Positions 1 through 61,395 of a DNA stretch of 64,000 bases are shown here, piece by piece; within the stretch, counting starts at the first letter, position 1; each line of letters begins with the position of its first letter. The translations under genes were made by a program, and so were the position numbers. Location: the NCBI GenBank assembly GCA_022711115.1, contig JAKLFP010000006.1, positions 86,214-150,213 of the forward strand. Reading direction: 5' to 3'. This DNA is from Candidatus Omnitrophota bacterium (GTDB lineage: Bacteria; Omnitrophota; Omnitrophia; Omnitrophales; Aquincolibacteriaceae). Below the pieces are notes generated by a model. That model was given only the letters and a program-made list of their open reading frames with translations. It did not search any database and was not told the DNA's origin.

Positions 1-3000
1 TAAAGTGTTTGCGCCCAGTTGTTTTTCCAAACGGTTCATCAAAATATCCATGGGATCCAGAAGAGCGCTTTGATTTTTAACTTTTCCGGCCGTCTCTTTT
101 TCTATTTGGGCTTTCCTTCCCGCCAAGTTAATCGCTTCTTCCAGTCTCTGCAGACCCAGAACAAATTCATCCATACCCGGGAAAATAGGTTGGGCTTTAG
201 CTGCCTCCAGTTTGCTTTTTGATTTTTTCAGATCGTCTTTTGCTAAAGCGCCTTCGACACCTGCCAAGAAACTTTTTAAAATCTCATTCCGCCGCGTCCA
301 TTCCTGTATGTCCTGCCCGTTTCGGACAAATTTTCCGAGTGCTTCAAGTTCTGTTTCTGAAAGAAGCGAAACCATGGCTTCATAAATTCTTCCGGCTTCA
401 TAAAGTTTTTTCTTTTTGGAATCGACATCCTGCAAGGCGCCCCGCTCCTCCATAAGGGCAACCAGCATCTCAAGTTTTTCAAGTACTAGAAGCTCCTTCG
501 CGCTCTGTTCTTTTGATGTCGCGAGAAAAACCTCGGCGATTCGTTCAACGGACGCAAGATATTCCTGAGAAGTGACCCATGGCAAAATCGTTTGCCGAAA
601 ATTTGCGGCAGAAGTTGCCTTTTTTGTTTTCAACATTTGGATCGTTGCGGCAAGCCGCCCCGCCGCGCCGCCATGTCCGCTCAACGCATCCTCCCACGAA
701 GCTTTGAAAAGAGCGCTACGGCCTTCTTTTTCTTCAGAGAAACCTATTTGGATCCACTCATCCGCATTGGGCCATTGGCCGCTTGGATCGAAATATTCTT
801 TGAGAAAATCAAAAAATTTTGTCCGCACAGCGGAAAGCCGGGTTTCCTTCACGGTCCTTTGATCATCCAGGCCCATGCGCTTGAAAAAAGCCACATTAAG
901 CGCGATCAGAAAACGGTTCTTTTCTCCGGCGTCCGGAATGGCATCGAGATAACTCTGCATCTTCTCTGTCGCGGGAACCATATCGTCAAGAACCTTTTTT
1001 AGCGGTGGAAAAAGAGACGTCCCGCTGGAAAAACGGCCGAAATCTTTCTGAGTGATCAGTGCTTGTCTTGGGTTCTCCTGCATAGCAAGGAATAGACCGA
1101 GTACCGGCATATAGATTTCACGCATTTGTTCTGGAATCTCAAAAAGCCTTTGCCTTTCCGGGGGAACCTTGCCGAACTCCTTTTGAAGCCGTTCCAAAAG
1201 ACTTCGCTTGGGACGCGCCGCTTCTGACAAAGATTGGACGGTACGCGCGACCTGTTTATGAGCTTGTATCAAGGGGTAGAGCACTGAACGCAGTTCCGGA
1301 AAATCTTCGCGCAAGGCTTCATAGGCCTGCGCCGAATCTTGCGGGGTGCCCGTTTCAAGGGCTTTACGAAAATCAATCAGCCGTTGGAATTGAGCAAGCC
1401 GCACGTTTAGATCTTCCACGACACTTCTTAATTCACTGCGCGGCGTTTTAGTTTGCACCCATTGAAAAATAGCCTCCACGCTTTGGACAAAAGCATCTTG
1501 TGAACTTAAATCGAAAGACGGCGGGCTGTTCATTCTTTTTATTTCGCTAAGCTCGATAAGCCGGCGAACCTGTCCTTGATAAATCTCAAAAGCCTGGGTT
1601 AATTCCTTTAAAATTTTATTGGCATAATCAGCCGCCGCCAGATTTTTAATCTTTTGTTCGAGACCGGCCAGATTTTTTTGTTTTTCAAATTCACGAACCG
1701 CGCCATGCCAAGTCTTATAAAAAACGGGCGTTTCTCCGGCGTCCGGGGCATACTTCATCATGAAATCGTCCAACCGGTCTCTCAGCACTTCGCCATCGGA
1801 TGTTTTAAAGGCATCATTGGAATCCATTCCAAGAGAGGTCAAGAAGGCCAGATTGAGGGCAACATACAATTCCCTTGCGGTTTCCGGCTTCGCTTGAAAA
1901 CGCTTTAAGATTTCAGAAGATGCCTTCTCGATCCATGGGTTGATAATGCGGAATTTGGAGCGGAATGCATGCATGTCTTGTGGCTGCAACAGGAAAACAA
2001 CTTTTCCGCTTGTTTTATCGAGATAAGTCGCAAGGAGAAGTCCGAGAACAGGAAAAAAGTGATCGGCTATTGAAATGTATTCCGTGAAGAATCCCATCCG
2101 GCCTTCAAGACCGGAATAACTTTTTGCGGGATCCAATCCGAACTCCCGCATCAGATTTTCTTTGGAAGCTAGGGGTTTAAGCGCGCGGCGGATCTGTGTT
2201 TCGGCTTGATGAAATGCTTGCAGGATCTGTTGGGTAGAACCTGCGGGGATCGTTTCCGGAGAGTGGAGTTTAAAAACACGCCGCTCATACTGTAATTCTA
2301 CTTTCATATGGTCATAGGTGGCCTGTTTCTCTTCTTCGGTCCGGGTGATTTGATGTGAATAAGCAACAATGGCCGGGGAGTTTCGCCCATGCTGGCGCGA
2401 CTCCGGAAAAAGACGCCCGTGCAGGGCGACTTCGGTAAGGAGTTTTTTCAGAGTATCAAATTTTTCATCTGTGTTCATCCCTTCATGAAACGCATATTTT
2501 TGAACCTCCGTATCCGCATAGACCATATTGGGAATCTCCTGAATGTCAACGCTGGGAGAACGAAGCGGCGATTCCAAAAACGCTACGATGAGCTCCTTCA
2601 TGAAACTTGCTTTGCTTTCATGGCCATGGGCCTCTGCCGGGGGGTCGACGATAGGCTGGTTGAAAACCAGTTTTAAACGGGGCGGATAATGGATCAAAGG
2701 TGAGAACTCTTTGCCCAGAGGATCCGCCGGAACGGACGGAATAAACTGGATGTCTACCACGTTCTTCAAGGCACGTGCAATTTCATATTCGGAACGTAGC
2801 ACCGGTCGAAAACCAAGATTGAGCATGACCCACAGCAAGATGATATTGGCTGCTCTGGGACTGGGTGGTGTGAAGCGGGGTTTTTCTGACGATGGAAGCG
2901 ATTCCGGAAAAAGATTCAAGAGACGATAGGCGAGAAGTTCATTGTCCCGGAACGCGCTAACAGTCGTGATTTCATTCGGAGGCTTGGGTTTGTCGCCAAG

Positions 3001-6000
3001 AGACGGCACCTTCGGATCGATGTCCGTGTCCAAATTAGCCAGGATCCGCCGAACCTTGAAGGCATCCCGAAGAAGGACCCAGATGGGATGGTTTTGATCT
3101 GCTAAGAGCAAATTATATTTTTTTCTTGCCCCGACAAGAACATGCATTAACTGAACTAGATTTCCGGTCTTTCCTTTCGTAAGATACTCCTGATAGTACA
3201 ATTTTCTGGCCATTTCTTCTGTGGTAAAAAGATTTTTCCCCGCATTGAGCCGTTCCAGATCTTTGAGAACATATTGGAAAAAGATTCTATGTTGTTCTTG
3301 CAATTCAGGAACGTCATGAGGTGAAAGCGCCACACCCGGTCGCGAATCAATATCAAACAAGCTGATATCTTGAAGCAATTTCCGGTACTGCAAGCCTTCC
3401 TGAACCCGATTCAGTTGGTCCATGACATCGGGATTGATCCGAGAAACTTCTTGAGCTTCGACATGACCTTCGGCATCCATACTTAAATAGGAAATACCAT
3501 GGGGCTCCGAAGGAGCTTGGACGGCCATATGAATGCTTTTGTCGGCTCCAAAAACAAACCCGAAAATATGTTCAATGGTATTTTCTTTCGCATTCGACTG
3601 CGTTGTGATTTTAAGCACACCCGCGCCACTGACAGAAAACACATAAAAGTTTTGATCCGGGAAATCACTTCGAATCTCATTTATCCGCCTCTGGAGGGCT
3701 TTGGAATCCATCACGATTTTTCCGTTTGCCGCCGGAGCTTGCGACATTTTCGAAGAGCCTTCCCCGCTGCGCACTTCAGAACGTACAGGACCATCTGCTC
3801 GTGATTTTTCTACAGCCTTTGAAACAGCATAGATGACCGGCTCCCAGCTCACCTGACCCGCTTTATCTTCCAAGATGCTTGTTAGCTGGGTATGGACGTA
3901 ACTGCTTATCGCATTGTAATGAGGCCGGACTTCACCGCTGCGAACTCTTGCAACAAAAAACTCCACCCATTTTTGTCCGGAACCTTCGCCAAAAGCTTTA
4001 TCGATTTTTTCAAAAGAAGAACGCACCTCCGCTCGATGTATAGACCTATGTTTCGGTTGTAAGATTATCGCGGTCGCTCCCCCATCATAGAGTTGCTCAA
4101 TTTTTTTAGACGCATACCATTGGCCTTCAGGGTCGAGATGCTCAAGATATCGGCGATAGCGGTCTTGCAGCATTTGCCTGAAATAGGTATGCCTGCTGAT
4201 GGTGTTATCCCACAATGGAATATCCGCGTCCTTTTCGACAGAGCTTTTTTCCAACAGCAAATGGGATCTTAAACTATTAGCAATCACGGCCGCCTTGGGC
4301 AATTGGGTTAAAGAATGAAGCGACGCTGTGGTGATCCTGACTGCATTATCAAACGGGTCTCCTTCTTCACTCCCCCCCAGCGATAAAACTCCACTATTGA
4401 GAATAAGATCGAATTTTTTCCCATGAAAATATCCTTTCGTATCCATCAGGCGCGCATCACCGTTTCGGGCATCTATTCCATTTTCTCTTTTACCATTCCA
4501 TCCTCCGACCGTAAGGGTCGACATAGCGCCACCGGCTTTTTTCAGAATATCATTGAGGAAATTCTCAAACACTCCGTCCGAGCCAATCTCTAAAATGTTT
4601 TTGATGCCATAATGCCTGAGGAGAAAGAGCAGCCGGTCCTCGGGATCCGATGGAAGCTCACCGTCAAAATCGTGCTCAAGATGATAAAAAATCATTGCTA
4701 AAAGATGCACATAATTGAATCTGGGAAGCTCAAAGCCTTCTTCGCCTTTCTTAATCAGCAAAGCTCTTGCCAAATAGTAATATTTTTTGGTTTTTGAATC
4801 CGGGAATTCTACGTAATTGAGAGGAACGACAGTTTTCGAATCATAGCGTTGTTGCATGTCCGACTGCAGTTTCTGCCATAGAGTAGGTTCAACAATATTG
4901 GGATGCGAAATAATGGACTGGGATTCTTGCTTGTACATCTGTGCCACAACGGTTTTGGATTGATCGAAAATGGGAGTCAACTGACCTTCAAAAGGTAAAG
5001 TTGCATTTCTTATTTCGGAACGATCAAAGGTAAGGCCTTGATTTGCAACAGTGAGACCGTGCTCTTCCAGGACAAGGGGATCAAGTGAACGGAGTAAAGC
5101 GGCAAACGGATGGTCGGCATCACCGACCTCGCGAAGACCTGTATTCAAACCCTCCAAATATTGAGTCCCCATTGCTTCGCTGAGCTGTGACTGAATAGCG
5201 CCTAACCCCATGAGGAGTGTAGGTTGGCGAATCGTTGACCCTGCCAAGACCCGGTCTTTGATCTCATGCGCACGAAGCTTAAGACCGGGTCTTGATTGTT
5301 CGGTCATAAGCTTGAGATAGCACTTGCCGTCGATTTTTTTCGAAATCCTTGGCGTAACGCGTATAAAAGAAATCTGGTGATCCTTGAAATATTGCGAAAG
5401 CCCTTCCGAGTGAAAGCCCCCGGTTACGAGAACCGCGTTTGGTTGATTGAGTGATTTCATCCGCCGCAGCATTTTTTCGAACATAATTTTTTCGCGTGCT
5501 TCCGCCAGCTCATAGAATCGCAAAGCGTCCACTACCCTGTCTTGGACGGTTCCGTTCCCTGGCGGATTATGCTCAGCGTTCAAAAGACGGTTTTGATCGT
5601 TGCCCGCTGACCGTTTTTCTTTGATTGTTCGATATTCTTCCCTGCTTAGTTCCAGAGCAAAGAGCTTCTTCAACAACAAATAATCTTGGTAACGATGGAT
5701 CACTTCTTTTTCAAAAGTTGTCTTCCCGAGCTTCTCCAGAACTTTTTCATTAAGTTGTTCGATTTCCTTAAATAGATCCGTCGCTTGAAGTTCGCTGGAA
5801 AGAATCGCCACGCCTATCCGACGCGTAAGGTTGGGATAATCTTCGAAACGAAAACCTTTCGGGGCAACGATACTATAAAATTCTTCAAAAAAACTTCGGG
5901 ACTCAAGACTCGGGGCTGGGGACTTGACTAAAAACGTTTCAAAACCATCTGCCATGGTGCCCAGTTTATGATCTATGAGCCATTTTTTCAGTTTTTGTAT

Positions 6001-6942
6001 TTCAGATTCAACAAGGGACGAGTTCCGGGCAACAAGTTTCTGTAAATTTTGGATTTTAAAAAATCGAACTAGCATGGGCCATTCAATCTGATGGCGAGTA
6101 TCGTTAAAATCGTGCCCTAAATAATCACGGGCATATTTCTCAAGAAGCGTTAAATGCGAAAGGATATCCTTGCCGGCTTCTTCTTGAAAAATCCAGGCTT
6201 TAAAAAAATCTTTTAGCTCTTTATTCAGAACCTTCGAGCTCTGCACCATAATCTTTCGGCGCATCTCATTCAAAAAACGATCCGTTTCGTTCTTGTGGCC
6301 GTAAACATCTCGAAAGACTTCAAGGTTCTTGCGATAGAGCACTTCGTCTTCAACTCCATAGACCACAGACTGAAGACTGGCGACTGAAACTTTAAAGTCT
6401 TTGGCCTGACGTCTTTGGCCGGCAGTCTGTTTTGAAAGAAACCGCTCCACGCCGCCAACGAACCCGAGTTTCGTCAATGCATCGATATATTTTTGATTCA
6501 GTTTTTCATCTTTGAAAAAAGCAAGTCTTTCCGGTTTTAACTCTCCGAAGCCGCCTTCTAAAAGAATCGTGTCGAACCCGTAACGGTCCTTCAGATGATT
6601 GAGAATGCGTTCTGTCTTGATCTGTGCTTCCTCACTGCCGTGGGCATCTTCGATATGGACAACCAGACTGGAGACTGAAAATGGAAGACCGAAGCGAGAG
6701 GTATTGCCAATTTCGGGTTTATAAATCTCGTTGATGATACCGATTTCGGAAGGAATAGCGATTTGATCGACCAATGAGGAGATGCTAGTCTCTAGTCTCT
6801 GGTCTACAGTCTGTAGTCTTGGAATTGAAAGATCCGCAGGCGCAGCTTGGGTGATGGTGGTGGTGGTGAAAATAAATACAATGATTCCCGCCACCAAGCG
6901 AATAGGAAAAGAGAATCTGGCACTTTTCTCGACGAAGCGCAT
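1..6942 (-). CDS. Giant modular ORF, second copy. Only the 5' portion lies in the window: the ATG is at 6942..6940 and the ORF runs off the left edge, so at least 2,313 codons are in the window. Signal peptide plus TraB/GumN/Tiki-like N-terminal domain, then modules separated by R-S-E-h-R junctions at 5008..5022, 3769..3783 and 1426..1440.
   Basis: No in-frame stop between 6942 and position 1, since no complete long minus ORF is listed there. The N-terminus MRFVEKSARFSFPIRLVAGIIVFIFTTTT is signal-peptide-like. It is paralogous to the N-terminus of ORF 25993..61080 (VHIEDAH, LLEGG and VLVTGGFHSEG motifs). The same RSEIR, RSEVR and RSELR junction peptides occur in frame. Confidence 0.8.
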   Translation of the reverse strand, partial: MRFVEKSARFSFPIRLVAGIIVFIFTTTTITQAAPADLSIPRLQTVDQRLETSISSLVDQIAIPSEIGIINEIYKPEIGNTSRFGLPFSVSSLVVHIEDAHGSEEAQIKTERILNHLKDRYGFDTILLEGGFGELKPERLAFFKDEKLNQKYIDALTKLGFVGGVERFLSKQTAGQRRQAKDFKVSVASLQSVVYGVEDEVLYRKNLEVFRDVYGHKNETDRFLNEMRRKIMVQSSKVLNKELKDFFKAWIFQEEAGKDILSHLTLLEKYARDYLGHDFNDTRHQIEWPMLVRFFKIQNLQKLVARNSSLVESEIQKLKKWLIDHKLGTMADGFETFLVKSPAPSLESRSFFEEFYSIVAPKGFRFEDYPNLTRRIGVAILSSELQATDLFKEIEQLNEKVLEKLGKTTFEKEVIHRYQDYLLLKKLFALELSREEYRTIKEKRSAGNDQNRLLNAEHNPPGNGTVQDRVVDALRFYELAEAREKIMFEKMLRRMKSLNQPNAVLVTGGFHSEGLSQYFKDHQISFIRVTPRISKKIDGKCYLKLMTEQSRPGLKLRAHEIKDRVLAGSTIRQPTLLMGLGAIQSQLSEAMGTQYLEGLNTGLREVGDADHPFAALLRSLDPLVLEEHGLTVANQGLTFDRSEIRNATLPFEGQLTPIFDQSKTVVAQMYKQESQSIISHPNIVEPTLWQKLQSDMQQRYDSKTVVPLNYVEFPDSKTKKYYYLARALLIKKGEEGFELPRFNYVHLLAMIFYHLEHDFDGELPSDPEDRLLFLLRHYGIKNILEIGSDGVFENFLNDILKKAGGAMSTLTVGGWNGKRENGIDARNGDARLMDTKGYFHGKKFDLILNSGVLSLGGSEEGDPFDNAVRITTASLHSLTQLPKAAVIANSLRSHLLLEKSSVEKDADIPLWDNTISRHTYFRQMLQDRYRRYLEHLDPEGQWYASKKIEQLYDGGATAIILQPKHRSIHRAEVRSSFEKIDKAFGEGSGQKWVEFFVARVRSGEVRPHYNAISSYVHTQLTSILEDKAGQVSWEPVIYAVSKAVEKSRADGPVRSEVRSGEGSSKMSQAPAANGKIVMDSKALQRRINEIRSDFPDQNFYVFSVSGAGVLKITTQSNAKENTIEHIFGFVFGADKSIHMAVQAPSEPHGISYLSMDAEGHVEAQEVSRINPDVMDQLNRVQEGLQYRKLLQDISLFDIDSRPGVALSPHDVPELQEQHRIFFQYVLKDLERLNAGKNLFTTEEMARKLYYQEYLTKGKTGNLVQLMHVLVGARKKYNLLLADQNHPIWVLLRDAFKVRRILANLDTDIDPKVPSLGDKPKPPNEITTVSAFRDNELLAYRLLNLFPESLPSSEKPRFTPPSPRAANIILLWVMLNLGFRPVLRSEYEIARALKNVVDIQFIPSVPADPLGKEFSPLIHYPPRLKLVFNQPIVDPPAEAHGHESKASFMKELIVAFLESPLRSPSVDIQEIPNMVYADTEVQKYAFHEGMNTDEKFDTLKKLLTEVALHGRLFPESRQHGRNSPAIVAYSHQITRTEEEKQATYDHMKVELQYERRVFKLHSPETIPAGSTQQILQAFHQAETQIRRALKPLASKENLMREFGLDPAKSYSGLEGRMGFFTEYISIADHFFPVLGLLLATYLDKTSGKVVFLLQPQDMHAFRSKFRIINPWIEKASSEILKRFQAKPETARELYVALNLAFLTSLGMDSNDAFKTSDGEVLRDRLDDFMMKYAPDAGETPVFYKTWHGAVREFEKQKNLAGLEQKIKNLAAADYANKILKELTQAFEIYQGQVRRLIELSEIKRMNSPPSFDLSSQDAFVQSVEAIFQWVQTKTPRSELRSVVEDLNVRLAQFQRLIDFRKALETGTPQDSAQAYEALREDFPELRSVLYPLIQAHKQVARTVQSLSEAARPKRSLLERLQKEFGKVPPERQRLFEIPEQMREIYMPVLGLFLAMQENPRQALITQKDFGRFSSGTSLFPPLKKVLDDMVPATEKMQSYLDAIPDAGEKNRFLIALNVAFFKRMGLDDQRTVKETRLSAVRTKFFDFLKEYFDPSGQWPNADEWIQIGFSEEKEGRSALFKASWEDALSGHGGAAGRLAATIQMLKTKKATSAANFRQTILPWVTSQEYLASVERIAEVFLATSKEQSAKELLVLEKLEMLVALMEERGALQDVDSKKKKLYEAGRIYEAMVSLLSETELEALGKFVRNGQDIQEWTRRNEILKSFLAGVEGALAKDDLKKSKSKLEAAKAQPIFPGMDEFVLGLQRLEEAINLAGRKAQIEKETAGKVKNQSALLDPMDILMNRLEKQLGANTL
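1426..1440 (-). other. Junction motif RSELR in the truncated giant ORF. Ser is encoded by AGT.
   Basis: cgc agt gaa tta aga. This is the only copy using the AGY serine codon family. Confidence 0.85.
3769..3783 (-). other. Junction motif RSEVR in the truncated giant ORF.
   Basis: cgt tct gaa gtg cgc. Confidence 0.85.
5008..5022 (-). other. Junction motif RSEIR in the truncated giant ORF.
   Basis: cgt tcc gaa ata aga, in frame with the ATG at 6942. Confidence 0.85.
5023..6942 (-). other. Module 1 of the truncated giant ORF: signal peptide plus TraB/GumN/Tiki-like domain (640 aa).
   Basis: Motifs VVHIEDAHGSEEAQIKTERILNHL, ILLEGG and AVLVTGGFHSEGL align with the other two paralogs in the window. 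Confidence 0.5.
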
Positions 6943-7442
6943 CTTCTTTTTTGTAACTCCAATGAGGCTTGGTATTTAGAGCATGTAAAAGTTAACACAT
7001 GTTTTTAAGTCTTACAATGGACTTATAAAATTTATTTATAAAATATAACAAGCTTTGGATAAAAAAAACTATCTTAAAATAGCATTATTATTCATAAAAT
7101 CAGCAACCTGCTACCTGGAGTTATTTATGAAATCCTTGTGATTTTTAACAATATTTTTGAGACTTTACGATGATTTTTGTCATGCTATAATGCCTCTTCT
7201 TGAAATTGTAAAGGGGGACCTGAGCCATGCTGCAGATCGGCGAAACCGTTCCTGATTTTGAAATACCATTCATTTAAATGGGAACGAAGTCTTTCCGGCA
7301 GGCTGGCAACCCGATAAAAGGATATTTAGACTTAACCAAGCTTTGGTTAAAAAAATATAAAACCCAGCGATTAATTTCAGGCCATTGCGGTAGAAAACTT
7401 TTTACGGCTGTGTTTTTATCGCTTACAAAATGAGAGGTATTT
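6943..7442. promoter_or_regulatory. AT-rich 500-bp region between the start of giant ORF 2 (minus) and sod (plus). Presumed divergent promoters.
   Basis: Very AT-rich. Contains a TATAAT-like tgctataat at ~7185. Near-palindromic 'ccaagctttgg(a/t)taaaaaaa' occurs twice, at ~7048 and ~7336. Confidence 0.35.
7227..7345 (+). pseudogene. Degraded peroxiredoxin (Bcp/AhpC-like) N-terminal remnant upstream of sod.
   Basis: A good Shine-Dalgarno (aagggggac) precedes an ATG at 7227. The 16-codon ORF MLQIGETVPDFEIPFI* matches the canonical Prx N-terminus M..(V/I)G..(A/V)PDF.LP. After the stop, another frame continues with NGNEVF, resembling Prx D.NG.EVSL, which implies a frameshift and truncation. Confidence 0.3.
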
Positions 7443-8021
7443 ATGCCATTTTCACTTCCTGAACTCCCTTACGCCATGGACGCTCTCGCGCCTCACATCA
7501 GCAAGGAAACCCTCGAATACCATTATGGGAAGCACCATAATGCCTATGTCACGAATCTCAACAAACTTACGGAGGGAAAACCTGCGGCTGGAAAAACCCT
7601 TGAAGAATTGATCAAGACTGCCAAGGGACCTGTTTTCAATAATGCCGCCCAGGTTTGGAACCACACCTTTTATTGGAATTGTTTGAAAGCGAACGGCGGC
7701 GGCATTCCCACCGGGCCGGTAGCCGAAGCCATCAACGCTTCTTTCGGTAGTTTTGAAGAATTTAAAACTCTTTTTACAAATATGTCGGTCGGACTTTTTG
7801 GCTCAGGCTGGACATGGCTTGTCAAAGACAGCGACGGCTCTCTCGGCGTCGAAGCGCTCTCCAATGCCGGAAATCCGCTGACCAATGACCAGAAACCCCT
7901 TCTCACCTGCGATGTCTGGGAACATGCCTATTACATCGATTACCGGAATGAGCGCGCGAAATACGTGGAAACTTTCTGGAATTTGGTGAATTGGGATTTT
8001 GTGAATCAGCAACTCAGCTGA
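7443..8021 (+). CDS. Superoxide dismutase, Fe/Mn family.
   Basis: 192 aa. Has HYGKHH, NHTFYW and DVWEHAYYIDYRN, the canonical Fe/Mn-SOD metal ligands and signature. Preceded by a gagg SD. Confidence 0.93.
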   Translation: MPFSLPELPYAMDALAPHISKETLEYHYGKHHNAYVTNLNKLTEGKPAAGKTLEELIKTAKGPVFNNAAQVWNHTFYWNCLKANGGGIPTGPVAEAINASFGSFEEFKTLFTNMSVGLFGSGWTWLVKDSDGSLGVEALSNAGNPLTNDQKPLLTCDVWEHAYYIDYRNERAKYVETFWNLVNWDFVNQQLS

Positions 8022-8662: not shown

Positions 8663-9200
8663 GGCCTGGAAAAACCTTGAGAGTTTCTTTCAAACCGGCT
8701 AGTCGCTTCAAACTTTCCCGCATTTTCAGTTCACTGCCTCCCGGAAGGTCACAACGCCCGCAAGCCCCGACAAAAAGTGTGTCCCCGGTCACCAGCCTAT
8801 CCTCGACAAGAATACATTGAGATCCTTCCGTATGACCCGGCGTGTGTATCAATATCAACTCCACATTGCCGATCTTCAGCAGAAAGCCTTCATAAGTTTC
8901 CAGAAGACGCTCTTTGATATCCTTGAGATGCCTTGCCTCTTTTTCGTGGACATAGACAGGACCCGCTATTTTTTGAATAAGATCGTTGACGCCGTTGCAG
9001 TGATCAAAATGCGTATGCGTCAAGACTCCGGCCACAACCTTCATTCCATCTTTCTCGGCTTCGCTCAAAACCGCATCCACATCCCAGGCCGGATCAACCA
9101 CAACGCATTCTTTTTTGCTTTTGTCCCCGATCAAATAGCAAAAATTCTGCATATAGCCAACCGGTATTTGTTTAAAATAAAGATTGCCGCTGTTACTCAC
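8592..9200 (-). CDS. MBL-fold metallo-hydrolase (glyoxalase II / hydroxyacylglutathione hydrolase-like).
   Basis: 202 aa. THTHFDHCNG is the HxHxDH metallo-beta-lactamase motif, with a downstream GHTEGS motif. Confidence 0.8.
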   Translation of the reverse strand: MSNSGNLYFKQIPVGYMQNFCYLIGDKSKKECVVVDPAWDVDAVLSEAEKDGMKVVAGVLTHTHFDHCNGVNDLIQKIAGPVYVHEKEARHLKDIKERLLETYEGFLLKIGNVELILIHTPGHTEGSQCILVEDRLVTGDTLFVGACGRCDLPGGSELKMRESLKRLAGLKETLKVFPGHAYGDAEESTMGHEKKTNPFMRF

Positions 9201-9684
9201 CGCATGGACACCTTTTCGTCTGGATACGTTCGTAATAAATACTTTCTATCTTAGGCTGGTCGCATAAATTCAAACGGGATTGTTCCGAAAAAGAAAACGG
9301 AAGCGGTGGATAAAAAACATCGCCGTCATAATTCTGATGAATCCGCGTCATATAGACCCCATCAATGAGAGAAAGTGTTTGCATGAAAAGATCCGCTCCC
9401 CCAAGGATAAAAGCCTTTTGTGTTTTGATTTGCCCAAGGGCATCTCCGAGCGTATCGAAGAATTGCGGATTGTCACCTCCTGAGGGAAGAGATTTGCTCA
9501 GAACAAAATTCTGACAATCCGGCAACGGTTTGCCGAGACCTTCATAGGTTTTGCGACCCATGATCACCGTGCTCCCAATGGTCAACTTACTGCGGTGTTC
9601 CCTGTCTTCTGGAAAACACCAAGGTATTTTCTGGTTCTTTCCGATAATATGATTTTGAGCGACCGTCACGATATGAAATAGCAT
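9193..9684 (-). CDS. folA: Dihydrofolate reductase.
   Basis: 163 aa. N-terminus MLFHIVTVAQNHIIGKNQKIPW matches the DHFR signature (I.A...N..IG....LPW). FILGGADLF is the GG motif. Confidence 0.88.
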   Translation of the reverse strand: MLFHIVTVAQNHIIGKNQKIPWCFPEDREHRSKLTIGSTVIMGRKTYEGLGKPLPDCQNFVLSKSLPSGGDNPQFFDTLGDALGQIKTQKAFILGGADLFMQTLSLIDGVYMTRIHQNYDGDVFYPPLPFSFSEQSRLNLCDQPKIESIYYERIQTKRCPCGE

Positions 9685-9726: not shown

Positions 9727-10221
9727 TCACGCTTGTTTCTCATAAAAAACAACTTCAAGCAAGGGATCGTCCTGCAGTTTTTCCCGTGATTTTTCTTTAA
9801 AGGCAGCCGGGATTTCCGGATAAAAAACATCGCCCTGGTAATCGGCGTGAATACGGGTGAGATAAATGCCGTGGGCTCGATTAATGGAAGTCCTGTAAAG
9901 CTCCGCACCCCCAATGATAAAAGCGCGCTCGGTCTTCACATTTTTCAAAGCGTCCTCGAGCGTGGAGAAATAGGTTTGACCTGGATAGGGATTTTGACCG
10001 CTCCGATCCAAAATAAAGTTTTGACGTCCCGGCAACGCCTTGCAACCAAGGCTTTCAAATGTCTTGAGGCCCATAATCACCGTCTGGCCTGTGGTCATTT
10101 TTTTGAAATGCTGCAGATCTTTTGAAAAATGCCAGGGGAGTTGATTCCCCTTCCCAATCACTCGGTTATTCGCAACAGCCACAATATGGTAAAGCACAAA
10201 ACCTCCAAACTTTTTGACCAA
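9727..10221 (-). CDS. folA: Dihydrofolate reductase, second tandem paralog.
   Basis: 164 aa with YHIVAVANNRVIGKGNQLPWHF and FIIGGAELY. Roughly 45% identical to the adjacent DHFR. Confidence 0.88.
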   Translation of the reverse strand: MVKKFGGFVLYHIVAVANNRVIGKGNQLPWHFSKDLQHFKKMTTGQTVIMGLKTFESLGCKALPGRQNFILDRSGQNPYPGQTYFSTLEDALKNVKTERAFIIGGAELYRTSINRAHGIYLTRIHADYQGDVFYPEIPAAFKEKSREKLQDDPLLEVVFYEKQA

Positions 10222-10277: not shown

Positions 10278-11072
10278 TTAAACAGCAACAGGTGCCTTGA
10301 TCGCCGGATGAGGGTCATAACCTTCCAGCTTAAAATCTTCGTATTTAAAATCAAAAATATTTTTTACCGAGGGATTCAGAACCATCTTCGGCAGAGTTTT
10401 CGGCTCGCGGCTCAACTGCAGCTGAACCTGTTCCCGATGATTCAGATAAATGTGCACGTCTCCAAACGTATGCACAAATTCGCCCGACTTCAGACCCGTC
10501 ACCTGTGCCATCATCATAGTCAGAAGCGCGTAAGAAGCAATATTGAAAGGCACCCCCAGAAAAACATCCGCGCTCCGCTGAAAAAGCTGGCAGGAAAGCT
10601 TCCCGTTCAGAACATAAAACTGGAAAAACGCATGGCAGGGCGGCAAAGCCATTCGGTCGATCTCCCCGGCGTTCCATGCGCTGACGATGATTCTCCGGCT
10701 GTCCGGATTGATTTTGATCATGTTAACCGCGTCCGAGATCTGGTCCACCGTCGTTCCGTCATTTTTTTTCCAAGACCGCCACTGAGCGCCATAAACCGGC
10801 CCAAGATCTCCGTTCGCGTCGGCCCACTCGTCCCAGATGGTCACACCGTTGTCTTTCAAAAATTTGATGTTCGTATCCCCTTTTAAAAGCCAAAGCAATT
10901 CATAGAAAATCGATTTGGTGTGGATTTTTTTGGTGGTCACTAGCGGAAACCCTTCCGCCAGATCAAACCGCATCTGATAACCGAAGGTGCTGATCGTCCC
11001 AACGCCCGTGCGGTCTTTTTTTTCGGTGCCGTTTTTGAGGATATGCCGTAGAAGATCAAGATACGGCTTCAT
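10278..11072 (-). CDS. thyA: Thymidylate synthase.
   Basis: 264 aa. Has [10 protein letters not shown] (catalytic Cys motif), [10 protein letters not shown] and the conserved C-terminal PAIKAPVAV. Confidence 0.95.
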
Positions 11073-49900: not shown

Positions 49901-52900
49901 ACTTGCTGTTTGATCTTTTCCTTAATCTCAAACGCTATTCGTTTTTTCGCCCCGGGATCTTTTTCTGCCTTGTATTTGAGCCACATGTCCCGCGTATCCA
50001 CAAACGCGATGTCCACGTTCACGCCGCCGAACCACTTCAGCAAAATCCTTTTCCCTTCCGATACCGCGCGCATCACGGCCGGCCACTGCAGTCCGATCCC
50101 AAGCACCGCGGAAGCGTCCGAAAAAATCACGATCTTTCTTTTTTGAGCCGGGAAAGACAAAGGCTTTTTGCCGTAAAGCGGCGTTTCAAGGTCCAGGCCT
50201 TTTTTCAGCGCGTCCGCGATCGCTTCACAAACGGCTCCCACGCCGGGGGTATAAACCGTCTTCATCGCTTCGATCACATCGACCGGGACAATGCCGTGCT
50301 TAAAAAATATGTCGATGAGTTTTTTGTAAGTCTGATATTCCGATGGGATCGCCGCCGGCAAGCTGTCCTCAGATGTCTCCCGAACTTCAGACCGGGGTCT
50401 GCTTTCCATACTAACCGCTACTTTGCAATTATTTGTGTCGGCCCGGGTCCTTACGCGGACATTTTCCCATCCCAATCGGGTAAGGTTTTTGAATGGAATA
50501 TCAAAGACAACCCAAGTTGTCCGATTTGAATCTACAATAAGCGAAGCTTCTTCTATCAATGCGTGGATATCTCCGTAGATATCAGCAGGCCTTTTCCCGG
50601 AAGGATCCACGTATAACCGCATAGGGATCCGGATCCGATCGTCCGGCTCAATGAGTTCGACTTGAAGTTGTTTGTGATCCTTAAAGAAGGATTGCTTAAC
50701 AAAAATATTGACGGCTTTGTCGTTTGTTTCGACGAAACCCGGAACCAAAAGGCTGATATCCTGTGCGGGTAAATGCCATTGGGGGCCTATGAAATCTCCC
50801 AGCGGCTCCCGAAAACTCCATGCCGTCAGCGCAAGAATTAACAACGCCATAGCCATACTTAGGTTTAAGAAAATAGCCCGTGAACTTAGGTTTGGATTCC
50901 ACCAGCGCCTTATCTGGGTGTCTGTGCGTGAAGCTTCTGGGATGGCAGCAACAGAACCGCCTTTCGGGGGCATGGTTCGTATTTCGGAACGGCGTCCAAA
51001 AGCTTTGGTAAGCGCTTCGGCAAGGGCTTTCGGATTGTCCCATGGAGCAAGATGTAATGAGGAATCTTTTTTGGGGTTTTTAAAAACAATTTTTTTCTGG
51101 AAAGGTTCAAGGCTTCGTTTTTCTCCTGACTGTATGACAGACACTTGTTTTGAGTTCAATCCAAGCGCCCGCTGTAATGTTAAAACAAGGTCTTCCGGAC
51201 TTTGCACAAAATCCAACGGGGCCATGTCAATGCCCACCCAAATACCGTTTCCAGCCTGATGAAAAGTTACCTCATACCCAAGTACTTTTGCCGTCTCACC
51301 CCGCATTTCGGAACGGCCCAGGTTTTGGCTTGGATCTGTTCTACCATTTGCGCGCTGATGAACGTTGATGATCGTTTGGGCGATCTCCATGGAGTTCATA
51401 ACAAAACCGTCTTTCATCACCGGTTTTACATTTTCGGTAACAAACTCCGAGGGACCCTGAGCGTAAACAAGCAACTGGCCGTCTTCGCTCTCAATAACAT
51501 GAATCCCATTCGGCAATGTCCTTCCCATACCTTGGATCAATCCTGCGAGCTGTTTTGCCGAGAAAACCGTGGTGTAATCACCGATGACCGCCGCAAGAGA
51601 TGTCGGATCTTTCCGGCTAGCGGCCCTCACTTCAGCCCGTTGAATGGCAGCAATTGCATTTTTTGCACTTAGGTGAACGGATGGATCTGAATCATTCAGC
51701 GCTGAGTAGAGCGCTGAAAGCGCTGGTTGGGCCTGGGGACCAATTTCCCCAAGTGTGATAATGGTCTGCTCACGAATCTCCGGAGAAGGGTCCCTCAATT
51801 GGGGCATTAACTGCCAAACTGCATCGCCCGCCTCAGAACCCAAGGCGCCAATAGCGGCAATGGCCTTTAAACGCACCTCTTTTTCCGGGTCGCCGATTAA
51901 ATGAAGCCAATCACTCACATTTTTCGGCATAGCCGTTTCAGACGTACTCCTCATTTCAGAGCGATTGTCCGCGGGATGTTTTCCTTCGAAGTGTGATGGT
52001 TTTTTGACAAAGGTGACTTTAGCGGTTGTCCCTTTAGGATAAGGATGTTTCAGGGTTTCGGGATTTTTTAAATCAACTGCTTTATGGCCGGGAGATGGAA
52101 TGATGCTGGCAATGTATTCACCGCCGCCTAGATTTTCACGTACCTCAACGGCTCGCTTGATAGCCTTGAGCGTCATGGTTGCCTCAAGTTTATAGATTTT
52201 AAAATGAAGGGCGTCGTCAGCTTTCACTTCCGTTAGCCCTTTGACCTTCGTCCTCATCTCGGACCTGGCAGAACGGCTTTTCAGGGTATCTATTTTTCTT
52301 TGACCCTCTTGATCTTCCGGTTGGATATAGCGGTGCAGAAAATGCCAAAGAAGAGATTCAGGAGTGAGAAGCGACTGGTCCCAAACCGGCATGTCTTTAA
52401 AAATCGTCTTGAATCGTTTCAGGACGTTGAATACAAAATCATTCTGCTTTCTCTGGAATTGCTGGGCATAGGCGATTTCGATTAACGGCCCCAAAAAACG
52501 GTTAAGAAACGGCAGTTCATAAGCAAGTTGTGTATTAATGGAACGATGCGCTTTTTTCATGGTTTTAAAGCTACGTTCCGTTTCTTCGAATCTCATCTTT
52601 TGCCATCTCCGGATCACCTCGGCAACCGTATGCTCCGGTCCCACCACCAAACTTGCGAGGATATCCCGCATCAAGCGGATGTCATAACCTGTCAGGATAT
52701 TATTGCCGTAAAGCAGCATATCAGGACTTGTATAAAGAAAGATCCCATAATGTGTTTCTTCAGGTTTCAAAACGGCCAACAACTCATCACTCAAAGCTTC
52801 AACCCCTGTCACAATCAAGGTCTCGTCCGGCGCAAGCTGCAAAAGCTGTTTTTCTCCTCGGTCGTCTTTAACGCGGATTTTCTTCCCGTCCAAAGCATTA

Positions 52901-55900
52901 CGGACATCCCACGGATTGGCAAATTCAAGGTCCAAATGTTTCAGCTTAAGACCTGCTTGAGCGAGCATTTCAGAGAGCTCTTCGGTGATTCCATGTTTGC
53001 CCGAAGCGCGCATGCCACCGATCAAGATCACCTTGGGTTTTTTCTCAAGGATCTCACGGATAACCTCCTCGGTCTGTTGCTTTTTGGATCGATCCACCTT
53101 TTCGACCAATGCTTTTCTTTCCTCTTCGGTTTTGATCGCTCGAAGTTCGTCGAGAGTTTCGGGCAGAAGTTCCAGGCTCATGCCTTCAAGGTCATAAGGT
53201 TTTTGGCCCTCAAGTTTTTTCGCCCATGCTTCGGGATGGCGCGCCAATTCCGCATTCATAATACGGATGACGGCCAAAATAAAGGCTGCTTTTCGAAGAC
53301 TTATTTTTTTCGCGTCGGCAATACGAACAACATTGTTAAAAGCGCTGATAATTTTATCTTCCATAATGCGGTTCACGGCATCTTCCGGCCATTGTTCACG
53401 AACAAGGTTCTGCCGCCATTCCAGGTAAGAAACGATCACGCCGCCCGCATTGGCAACCACATCCGGAACAACGATGACACCTTTTTGCTTCAAAATTCCG
53501 TCGGTTTCCTTGTTTTTGATCGGTCCGTTGGCTGCTTCAATCACCAATTTGACCCGGAGCAAACGGGCAATGCGTTCATCAATGGTATTTTCGAGTGCGG
53601 CAGGCACTAGGGTATGAACCTCGCTGGCCCAAAATTCTTCCTCGGAGATCACTTTCACTTCTTCGGGGTATTCTTTTGCATAATCCAAAATGGTTTTCCT
53701 GGGAAGCATGTTGCCGGCCGCGTCTTTCCTGGGTGCCAGGAATTCCAGAATCTTGGGAATGTTCAAACGTTCACCGGTTTTGGTCGCAATAGCGCCTTCT
53801 TTTTCTTTCACGGCCATAATCCTTGCTCCATTTTCATGAAAGATTTGCGCGCCATGCCCGCCCACATTGCCGAGTCCTTCAAACGCAACGGTTTGTTTTT
53901 CTATCTCTGTCCCGATGCCGAGCCGGGCTCCAAAAACTTTGACTGCTTCGCGCCAGACAAAAAACACCCCACGGCCTGTTGCTGCAGTCCGACCATGTGA
54001 ACCGCCTTTTTTCTCGGGCTTGGCGGTCACCACAGCAATGGGAGATCCTTCTACCATTGGAATTTTATGCTTTTCAGGATTTGCTAAATACGCGTCTAAA
54101 TAGGGTGTGTCGACATCTTTGGAATTGCTTAGTTTCCACCGAAATTCGATTGTTTTTTTGAATAATTTGTCATGCTTAATCTTTAAAAATTCATCTGCCA
54201 TCCATGCCATTTCCTTTTCTCCAGTGCCGACATCCGGAGCCGGAATATCATTCAAAGGACCGATCGCATCGGCATCTTTGGCAAGCAAAGCCTTCACATA
54301 ACCTCGAGTCAATCGTGCGAGCTCGCCTTCTGAAAGCTCGCGCGGATTCACGGCAATGCCTCCCTTGCCCCCTCCGTAAGGAAGCCCTGTGATGGCATTT
54401 TTGATGCTCATCCACATGGAAAGAGCCTGCACATCCTCAAGATCGACATTCGATTTATAGCGCACACCGCCTTTTCCCGCCCCCCGCGCATCATTGTGAT
54501 AGACGCGATAGCCTTTAAAGATCTTTGTGGTGCCATTATCCATACGCACCGGAATATTTACTTCAAGGATACGATAAAAGCTGAGGAGCCATTCAAGAAG
54601 TTGGGGATCAAGGTGGATCAGCTCTGCGACCTCCGAAACCTGACGCTTTGCATTATCAAGGGCCACCTGACCTTCGGATGCTTTTGCCTGTGCTTCTTTT
54701 TCTGCTCGCACTTCGGACCGTCCTTCAAGTTGGCCGGGCATGTCGGCCATCAAAATTCCCTCGTCATCTGACAGCAACGTCTGCTGACCGCCAGGCGCTA
54801 CATAGCGCGACACCGGCCTGCTGAGTTTTTTTCCTCCGCTGAAATTCAGGAAAGCGATCGGTTTCCGGTTGAATTTTTCAGAAAGTTTGGAAGCCCAAAA
54901 ATCAGCGCTAAACTGATCCGTTCCGGCCACTACCAAAATCTGGTCTGCTTCTGATAATTCGTTAAATAACCTGTCGGGAGGTGAAGTGATGTCGATGGCC
55001 CATTCACTCTCATTGCAGATGAGCAGTGCCAGTTTGAATTTTTGATTCAATAAAATGATTCGCGATTCTTGGTTATGAGCGTATTTCTTGAATTCTGTTT
55101 TTTGAACTCGACCCGTTCCATCGGAAAGGAAAAAGACATAGAAAGCCCTTAAGTACTCCAGCCCTTCGGGAGGGATCCTCTCCAAACCGTAGCCGACCGA
55201 AATTCCAAGACGCCGGACCGTTTCTGAGAGAATTCTTTCTCTTTCTTTTTCGCGTTCCGGAGTGTAGCTGTTCCAACCCACAACTTCATCCGGGCTTTCA
55301 GGGAAAACAACAAGATCGGGGGCATTTGTTCCGAATTTATCTTTGAGCCCTTGCAGAATCCCCGCCATTCTGGCTGTGCTCGCATCAAAATCATTTTCCT
55401 TCATTTGGACCCAAGCGATCCTTGGAGCGTCACTTTTTGCCTTTTCGTCAAGCCACACAATCTGTGCGGGTAACGCTTCTTCTTTTTTTCTCACTTCGGA
55501 ACGAGAAGAAACTTCGGGCGGCTGTTCTTCAAAAAGAAGATCAAGGGCCAACTGACCTTCTTGACCATAACCTTTCTGCCGAAACAGATCTTCTAAGCGA
55601 GGGCGTTGTACGAGGTCGCTGAAATCCGCATCTTCGGAAATTTGGTCTTGTATGGTCTTGCGAAGCAATTCCAGAATCCTTCCCGCGGATGAATAATCAG
55701 AACCACGTTGAGTCTTACGAATAAGAGAATCTGTTAACGCCGTAAAAATATTAGCGAGAAAAATAGTGTCTCGAGCTTCCTGAGAGATATTGGCAGGAAC
55801 ACGGCTGGCTGGTTTTTGATCCTGCATTTTTGCCCTCGCAATAGCACTTTGAATCCAGTCCATGACCGTTTTCTTGGTTTTGTTTTCAGTCCTCACTTCA

Positions 55901-61080: not shown

Positions 61081-61395
61081 GAAATAGGTTGTCTTTCCTT
61101 ATTTCCGATCTGGATCTTTAGGTATGAGAAAACTCGCTGAAAGCGTAACATATTTTTTTATAATTTCAAGTTCTTGAAAAAGGATTTATTAATGCATGCA
61201 TTAAGATTTTAAATTTCGTTACTAATGACACTCCATTGCTATATACTGCTAGAATAAGAAAATTCATGGCAGGAGCTGTCTCTACTCCGTGTTGATTTTA
61301 GACACGATCTGGGCTATATATATTGTGCATTGCGCGAGAGTTCCAAGGTACACTGCAATAAAATTACGTAATGCTGTTTCCAAAATGAGGACACG
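61081..61395. promoter_or_regulatory. AT-rich divergent intergenic region between the giant ORF (minus) and its stand-alone TraB-like paralog (plus). Presumed bidirectional promoters.
   Basis: 315 bp, strongly AT-rich (tataatttcaagttcttgaaaaagg..., ctatatact...). Both flanking ORFs have SD-like sequences adjacent to their ATGs. Confidence 0.4.

Follow-up and report, generated by a model that had tools for sequence, protein, structure and literature searches.

Viral polyproteins carry an embedded protease, such as the potyvirus NIa, the picornavirus 3C or the nidovirus 3CLpro, that cuts the chain at a short consensus. In bacteria, the gingipain/HagA polyproteins of Porphyromonas and the multi-core precursors of ribosomally synthesized and post-translationally modified peptides (e.g., PatE) are also cut at repeated, defined sites. 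Since 2022, giant open reading frames (ORFs) have been reported in Omnitrophota, with a nature qualified as 'poorly understood' (Seymour et al. 2023, PMC10066038). For the giants described by West-Roberts et al. (2023, bioRxiv 10.1101/2023.11.21.568195), cleavage via C39 or S8 domains was suspected, the cleavage points being unknown, and a preprint of June 2026 (bioRxiv 10.64898/2026.06.07.730766) treats 'multi-enzyme metabolic cluster' giants as single polypeptides, the terms cleavage, motif, proteolysis and polyprotein being absent from it. Here we analyse a stretch of 64,000 nucleotides from an Omnitrophota genome assembly (GCA_022711115.1, contig JAKLFP010000006.1; hereafter the window) that carries two giant genes, ORF A, which leaves the window at its left edge, and ORF B. 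Both encode a homologous N-terminal domain (the head) followed by a series of modules delimited by a recurrent pentapeptide, RSExR (the junction). We consider it reasonably probable that these genes encode cellular polyproteins cut at the junctions, and that the head is the processing enzyme or the obligatory partner of one.

We infer that the feature combines two known kinds of system, the giant Omnitrophota ORF and the protease-processed polyprotein. With the published giants it probably shares the phylum, to judge from the closest relatives of the head, and a length of >10,000 aa; it also has an N-terminal signal or transmembrane helix and many unrelated enzyme domains per chain, but it differs from them in the conserved head and the junction motif, neither of which was reported there, and its head has a predicted TIKI-type fold, unlike the C39/S8 peptidase domains of the giants of West-Roberts et al. 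As in viral polyproteins, one ORF encodes many unrelated proteins, with a short junction consensus and a single protease-like domain in the chain. Unlike them, it sits in a cellular chromosome among ordinary bacterial genes, reaches ten times their length and has a head of another fold, and its cleavage is predicted from sequence. Gingipain/HagA and PatE differ in yielding few products of related function, in their recognition and proteases, and in being orders of magnitude smaller. MARTX toxins, in which a cysteine protease domain cuts after Leu, have neither an RSExR-type consensus nor an N-terminal head, whereas the Omnitrophota chains have no repeat regions and their modules look metabolic, not toxic. 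Literature searches on Omnitrophota with polyprotein or TraB, and on bacterial polyproteins with a cleavage motif, found nothing relevant, and within the searchable literature neither the head family nor the junction code seems to have been described.

In the mechanism that we propose, the giant gene would be translated as a single chain, which would then be cut at the junction peptides to release separate protein-sized products, by analogy with viral polyproteins and MARTX (multifunctional autoprocessing repeats-in-toxin) toxins. Each member of the family is predicted to consist of an N-terminal hydrophobic signal or anchor, a TIKI-fold head of ~500 aa and a string of unrelated modules. The head, present once per chain, is the best candidate for the processing hydrolase, or else for an obligatory partner of it.

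Reading frame, junctions and modules of ORF A

The reading frame, the junctions, the modules and the flanking gene are as follows.

1-6942, minus strand: ORF A, 5' part, its first 2,314 codons; the gene exits the left edge of the window
5008-5022, minus strand: junction 1, RSEIR, aa 641-645, codons CGT TCC GAA ATA AGA
4036-5007, minus strand: module 1a, orphan, aa 646-969; contains ILEIGSDGV, with FDLILNSGVL downstream
4021-4035, minus strand: RAEVR, aa 970-974, probably a further junction; RAE.R is 15 times as frequent in the family as expected
3784-4020, minus strand: module 1b, orphan, aa 975-1053 (79 aa)
3769-3783, minus strand: junction 2, RSEVR, aa 1054-1058, codons CGT TCT GAA GTG CGC
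1441-3768, minus strand: module 2, orphan, aa 1059-1834 (776 aa), with no Pfam, NCBIfam or database homologue
1426-1440, minus strand: junction 3, RSELR, aa 1835-1839, codons CGC AGT GAA TTA AGA
1-1425, minus strand: first 475 aa of module 3, which runs on to RSEMR at aa 2542, outside the window
6943-7442, no strand: AT-rich intergenic stretch separating ORF A from the divergently oriented Fe/Mn superoxide dismutase gene
7443-8021, plus strand: Fe/Mn superoxide dismutase (sod) gene, adjoining ORF A divergently

Translation of ORF A from the ATG at 6942 to position 1 on the minus strand gave 2,314 sense codons and zero stops, in agreement with the open frame announced by the original prediction, a reading of this DNA made from its letters alone. 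An in-frame stop lies 13 codons 5' of this ATG, GGAG and AAGAAG stand immediately before the ATG inside an AT-rich spacer, and no ORF of at least 150 aa in another frame overlaps positions 1-6942. The RSEIR, RSEVR and RSELR peptides occupy exactly the positions first given for them, and the modules that they delimit do measure 408, 776 and >475 aa; the RAEVR peptide at 4021-4035, which had been overlooked, probably splits the 408-aa module into 324 + 79 aa. Three RSE.R peptides in ORF A compare with 0.05 expected from the composition of the ORF (in 2,000 shuffles of ORF A the mean was 0.046 and the maximum 2; Poisson P(≥3) ~2e-5). Taken together, the five other frames have 6 RSExR matches over all 64 kb of the window. 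Junction 1 (aa 641) lies directly past the head, a position typical of the family, with which ORF A shares a homologous N-terminal head, recurrent junctions and mutually unrelated modules. An Rfam scan gave no match, and a tandem-repeat scan found none.

Could this frame be an artefact, produced by mis-assembly or by a chimeric contig, or else be open without coding or as a pseudogene? By way of the sod gene, the window was found to match contig Ga0116241_10000037 (462 kb) of the Joint Genome Institute (JGI) metagenome 3300010429 at 100% identity; in this contig the stretch that we read (locus L081) has its position 2559 at window position 1. There, 852 more codons are open to the left of the window, i.e., all that were read, and they add two junctions, RSEMR and RSEVR, contrary to the idea that a stop just left of position 1 with no further motifs would reduce ORF A to a modest protein. 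The 3,166 codons read directly are stop-free at 47.6% GC. Likewise, a mis-assembly joining ORF A to sod is contradicted by four independent assemblies (JGI 3300010429, JGI 3300025706 and two short contigs of the European Nucleotide Archive) that are 100% identical across the head-sod junction, and the head is conserved in thousands of relatives. Apart from the JGI gene call of that one assembly, which starts at an internal codon (window 4773, aa 724) and counts 9,554 aa, no support for an artefact was found, and this explanation is already effectively refuted.

From the JGI gene call, the full length of ORF A starting at ATG 6942 would be ~10,277 aa and its end would lie ~23.9 kb left of position 1, so that the window would contain the 5' quarter of a gene of ~10,000 codons. 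The published thresholds for giant ORFs are >20 kb or ≥10,000 aa, to be compared with 3,166 codons read and the ~10,277 aa estimated here. The JGI product of 9,554 aa (L081 1-7331, from window 4773 leftwards) has no head, and the call in the assembly of locus L082 starts at ATG 6942. Because the JGI call starts internally, surveys based on gene calls may miss the heads of some giants.

None of the four ORF A segments within the window matched Pfam or NCBIfam. At E ≤ 1, the six junction-delimited modules of ORF A gave only sub-threshold Pfam matches to methyltransferases, confined to a module outside the window. A word index of 5.8 billion proteins returned no match for ORF A modules (this index apparently omits the window's own proteins), and BLAST of these modules against 230 other polyproteins found no match outside the head. 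ORF A has no self-similarity and no similarity to ORF B outside the head. The peptide ILEIGSDGV, encoded at 4570-4596 on the minus strand in module 1a and followed by FDLILNSGVL, resembles motifs I and IV of class-I methyltransferases at the motif level only. Module 1a has no Pfam match at E ≤ 1, no PDB match at E ≤ 10 and no database homologue, and it does not resemble either of the two genuine methyltransferase modules, so these searches lend no statistical support to the methyltransferase once read from ILEIGSDGV. A clear S-adenosylmethionine-binding motif, VVEIGSGSG, is found in a module of the leftward extension, with a match to Methyltransf_23 (E 2.7e-4) under the Pfam threshold.

A conserved head with a predicted TIKI-type fold

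The head region of ORF A comprises the following features.

6850-6942, minus strand: basic stretch followed by a hydrophobic helix, MRFVEKSARFSFPIRLVAGIIVFIFTTTTIT, signal peptide or signal anchor
5338-6774, minus strand: head domain, aa 57-535, an alpha/beta core with a large helical insertion (~aa 200-497)
6640-6657, minus strand: HIEDAH motif, aa 96-101; H101 invariant, candidate catalytic His
6556-6558, minus strand: E129, invariant, 28 residues after H101
6349-6351, minus strand: E198, invariant, at the C-terminal end of core strand 193-197
5410-5424, minus strand: TGGFH motif, aa 507-511; H511 invariant, second candidate catalytic His
5023-5337, minus strand: stretch from the head to junction 1, aa 536-640, modelled less confidently than the head core

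The N-terminal helix, predicted by the models at aa 12-31 and also seen in a hydropathy scan, has counterparts in ORF B and homologues. The head had no Pfam or NCBIfam match at E ≤ 0.1 except a chance-level one to Peptidase_M60 (E 0.097), none at gathering score to PF01963 (TraB/PrgY/GumN) or to the sister Pfam models of the TIKI superfamily, and a profile of the head matched no PDB sequence. The word-indexed search of 5.8 billion proteins gave three matches for the head. No words are more over-represented in the family than GGFH and TGG.H.

A first AlphaFold2 model of the head, from 5 sequences, had a predicted local distance difference test score (pLDDT) of 65.6, and a second one, from a 35-row alignment, reached a pLDDT of 82 and a predicted template modelling score of 0.78; the block at aa 536-640 was mixed (pLDDT 46-85, with some segments <50). 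The best fold matches of the model were EreC (score 9.2), HopBA1 (9.0) and ChaN (8.5), followed by a TraB-family chain (7.9), RRSP (7.5) and PMT (6.4). The model contains the core of the superfamily, a parallel beta-sheet flanked by helices, as in the solved members. As modelled, then, the head is a member of the TIKI/erythromycin-esterase/ChaN/TraB fold superfamily, and the 'TraB-like head' of the original prediction holds for the fold of the model and fails as family membership, given that no hidden Markov model (HMM) of a member family matches.

All 113 of the 113 heads compared have H101, E129, E198 and H511, each being placed by the model at the C-terminal end of a core strand. In this superfamily, His-Glu pairs are known in Bcr135 (H85/E113) and RRSP (H3902/E3930), and the endopeptidases RRSP and Tiki rely on a set of two His and two Glu (PMC6254334). 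The 28 residues that separate H101 from E129 equal the spacing in the Bcr135 and RRSP pairs. With TIKI, TraB, PrgY, erythromycin esterases and ChaN, the head as modelled has in common the alpha/beta core, a helical insertion, conserved His and Glu at strand ends and the His-Glu spacing of 28. Unlike them, it matches no sequence model, its helical insertion is far larger (~300 aa) and it is always fused to a multi-module tail. The same fold is common to the endopeptidases Tiki and RRSP, but also to esterases and a haem-binding protein.

The sister gene ORF B

ORF B carries the same architecture at a length that can be read completely in the window.

25993-61080, minus strand: ORF B, 11,695 aa, with a homologous head, 33 RSE[VMILA]R and 1 RAExR

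The head of ORF A, counted as its first 640 aa, and that of ORF B are 31% identical over 586 aa (E 1e-68), in an alignment that takes in the first 566 aa of ORF B. This homology and the junction peptide common to both genes bear out the shared architecture that had been proposed for them. Against 0.23 RSExR expected in ORF B, 33 were found. Between these junctions lie whole enzymes and other modules: a glutamate dehydrogenase, a malic enzyme, a UDP-glucose pyrophosphorylase (UDPGP) with an NAD-epimerase, an inositol monophosphatase, a methyltransferase, an acyl carrier protein-like (ACP-like) module, MraZ and HEAT repeats, and no internal repeats were detected. None of the junctions falls inside a Pfam domain, and several modules are as long as the corresponding protein is on its own (MraZ, 128 aa; ACP-like, 138 aa; methyltransferase, 279 aa; malic enzyme, 576 aa). 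A few modules open with a hydrophobic transmembrane- or signal-like helix right after the junction (e.g., aa 5487 and 7444).

Two further observations concern the sequence of ORF B. A region of ~325 aa (aa 2614-2938, ~nt 52267-53241) with the P-loop GGMRASGKHG, uridine-kinase-like by eye, is fused behind the glutamate dehydrogenase with no junction motif between them. An RSExR-coding 15-mer at 61097-61111 (minus strand) lies 17 nt upstream of the ORF B ATG in another frame, its first base being 31 nt away, and is probably a chance match, one of the six in the five other frames.

Size and distribution of the family

With a profile built from five heads, 1.84 billion cluster representatives were screened, of which 9,151 matched at E ≤ 1e-3 and 4,861 at E ≤ 1e-30. 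ORF A itself (P0004) was the top match (E 1e-262). In the best 150 representatives the head is N-terminal and the lengths reach 7,818 aa. Head loci were also counted in GTDB with one genome per species, names being taken from the best 80 loci. At least 549 head-encoding loci exist in these species representatives, and the named ones among the best 80 all belong to metagenome-assembled genomes (MAGs) or single-amplified genomes (SAGs) of Omnitrophota, with up to 5 head loci per MAG. The head of ORF A is 42-46% identical to heads in Omnitrophota MAGs, the species of the window not being in the set. The gene class that two copies in one window had suggested to be recurrent is thus a large one, and the family combining head and junctions appears to be restricted to Omnitrophota.

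At five loci (L005, L026, L033, L045, L078), junction-rich ORFs end just upstream (within 10 kb, on the same strand) of a head ORF, and polyprotein genes therefore often stand in tandem on the same strand. At four others (L001 12079-21837, L023 13404-18158, L030 13066-21570, L042 1993-4284) the head ORF ends prematurely, and its stop is overlapped by a junction-rich ORF that carries on in a different frame. Such early stops may reflect either assembly frameshifts in the MAGs or real frameshifting.

The junction peptide across relatives

Motif statistics were computed on the 150 representatives plus the two window ORFs. RSE.R occurred 715 times against 10 expected, which makes it the top over-represented gapped word besides the motifs of the head itself, and RAE.R 215 times against 14, whereas substitutions at R1, E3 or R5 were not enriched. 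The logo reduces to R-[S/A]-E-[V/L/A/M/I]-R, with a small residue at -1 and no other flank conservation. The first junction lies at a median of aa 615 (quartiles 579-662), and successive junctions are 216 aa apart in the median (quartiles 106-408), so that the modules are distributed in size much as proteins are.

Other lineages use other peptides. One head clade (12 adjacent leaves of a tree built by the unweighted pair group method with arithmetic mean, plus two others) has zero R-type junctions and [AG][AS]SLG instead, at a density as for the R-type and with the first copy at aa 577-611. Its users include the MAGs JAKQXH and JACROU and the SAG Omnitrophus fodinae (examples of the clade are P0099, P0125 and P0129, and loci L031, L037, L045, L048 and L062). 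The MAG CAYQTU (L020, L025, L044) uses RPE[SA]R. RAExR, RPE[SA]R and [AG][AS]SLG are mutually exclusive with RSExR, and the junction type is uniform over all copies within a genome. The RSEhR junction originally proposed holds for ORF A and ORF B, and its serine is not essential, Ala or Pro being found elsewhere. For this reason a role of the junction Ser as autoproteolytic nucleophile or phosphorylation site was rejected.

We compared the position of junctions with that of 1,078 BLAST homology blocks (<60% identity, ≥80 aa) between different polyproteins, the blocks being non-independent. Of these, 35% begin within 30 aa after a junction and 37% finish within 30 aa before one, against 11% in both cases for randomly placed segments, and 28% span a junction, against 53% at random. 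Junctions coincide with the boundaries of homology blocks, and the effect is large. The blocks that do cross a junction, together with fused domains that have no junction between them and with the published accounts that treat such ORFs as single polypeptides, would agree with an uncleaved single chain, i.e., a membrane-tethered multi-enzyme or adhesin-like scaffold in which RSExR acts as a linker, docking or modification motif, for instance one that the head binds or modifies. Such a chain would have to account for a motif of only five residues, of which R, E and R are invariant, that has no structure around it and recurs between unrelated modules. Other lineages have the unrelated [AG][AS]SLG at the same positions, as is typical of protease sites, and this wholesale replacement makes a structural linker hard to uphold; that Ser can be replaced by Ala or Pro also speaks against phosphorylation. 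We regard an uncleaved chain as distinctly unlikely.

Peptide or nucleotide signal

We read the junction as a peptide on which selection acts, rather than as a DNA element, from the codons that encode it. Among the 38 RSExR junctions of the contig, third codon positions vary, Arg is encoded by both CGN and AGR, and AGR is as frequent at the last Arg as in the ORFs overall, with no bias. The AGT serine of junction 3, noted at the outset as an instance independent of TCN, is real and constitutes the sole AGY among these 38 (two ORFs and extension). In the two ORFs, a degenerate DNA pattern of the junction occurs only in frame, with chance-level matches elsewhere.

Codon usage at the junctions is nevertheless uneven: TCN encodes Ser in 37 of 38, although AGY accounts for 31% of Ser codons over the two ORFs, CGY encodes the first Arg in 31 of 38 (40% overall) and GAA is found in 30 of 38. 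Some nucleotide-level or common-descent effect is therefore possible. Taken further, the junction could be a nucleotide-level element (a recombination site for shuffling or an mRNA-processing site) with the peptide as by-product, and the location of junctions at homology-block boundaries is what module shuffling would give. Against such an element stand the free third positions and the AGR and AGT alternatives, the restriction of the pattern to the reading frame and the coding strand, and the lack of an Rfam match. The TCN bias, moreover, would be expected anyway from single codon steps between the Ser, Ala and Pro variants, and may fit either this interconversion or common descent of the linkers. 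A nucleotide element appears very improbable.

Two further explanations of the junctions were rejected. Recoding of stop codons is not at issue, as the frames hold no stops. Internal translation starts after the junctions were discarded on the grounds that Met occupies the +1 position in 3 of 38 contexts read by eye; over 713 sites, Met is not among the five commonest +1 residues.

Is the head the processing enzyme?

If the chains are cut, the protease may be the head or an enzyme encoded elsewhere. To relate heads to junctions, all ORFs of at least 300 aa in the 80 loci and the window were classed with the head HMM. The 97 head ORFs (222,017 aa) contain 408 R-type junctions and the 354 non-head ORFs (181,892 aa) contain 49. 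Of the latter, 40 fall in nine ORFs whose N-terminal end is cut by the locus edge or which continue an apparently frameshifted head ORF, so that every junction-rich ORF with a visible N-terminus has a head. This coupling would be needless if processing were purely in trans. The invariance of the two His and two Glu and the fact that the SLG-type junction tracks a head clade also argue for the head.

A separate protease, with the head devoted to tethering, export, quality control or esterase work, nevertheless agrees with several observations. One junction type is used across all copies in a genome, as expected of one shared enzyme, and a genome-wide trans-acting protease therefore explains the co-variation equally well. 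Comparison of the SLG and RSE clades yielded five weak head positions separating them, none near the putative active site, and no specificity-determining residues were found there. Finally, the TIKI superfamily has non-proteases too (PMC6254334). We deem a separate protease rather unlikely.

Together with this uniformity and the lack of clade-specific residues near the putative active site, other points weigh against polyproteins processed by their own heads. Cleavage, its attribution to the head and its place in the cell are inferences, whereas the ORF, the homology of the heads and their modelled fold, the motif excess, its confinement to head-bearing ORFs, its place at module and block boundaries and the lineage variants are shown. 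The 28% of homology blocks that cross a junction and the codon bias described above belong here as well. In ORF B, the boundaries between the glutamate dehydrogenase and the P-loop kinase-like region and between UDPGP and the epimerase have no junction. The site of cutting is also problematic, as the positive-inside rule suggests that the head and the modules that follow it would be placed outside the cytoplasm, whereas the modules of ORF B are typical cytoplasmic, nucleotide-dependent enzymes, which conflicts with export.

Neighbouring genes

Elsewhere in the window, tandem dihydrofolate reductase genes (9193-9684 and 9727-10221, minus strand) adjoin a thymidylate synthase gene (10278-11072, minus strand); the second reductase gene has a TTG start and a called length that differs between two assemblies. 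A 725-aa ORF at 61396-63573 (plus strand), divergent from ORF B, has no Pfam match.

Implications for Omnitrophota

Even if the chains are uncleaved, a family of more than 9,000 representatives with no Pfam or NCBIfam model is worth recording. The head and the junction code together predict the cut sites of each chain and the candidate cutting residues. The lack of known cleavage points has been named as an obstacle (bioRxiv 10.1101/2023.11.21.568195), and the junction code offers testable predictions of them as well as a means of dividing giant ORFs into pieces that can be annotated and modelled singly. Should cleavage be confirmed, these genes would represent a large-scale cellular counterpart of viral polyproteins, and the head a new sequence-specific protease family with its recognition site, usable as a tool.

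A broader proposition, which we advance tentatively and with less confidence than the polyprotein reading of these genes, is that Omnitrophota encode much of their proteome as cellular polyproteins from which a TIKI-fold head excises the products at a lineage-specific five-residue code. If true, tens of unrelated enzymes and membrane proteins would be made per ribosome pass, at the scale of thousands of genes, by a gene-expression strategy previously known only from viruses, and with every cleavage point predicted. It would also explain what the giant genes of Omnitrophota are.

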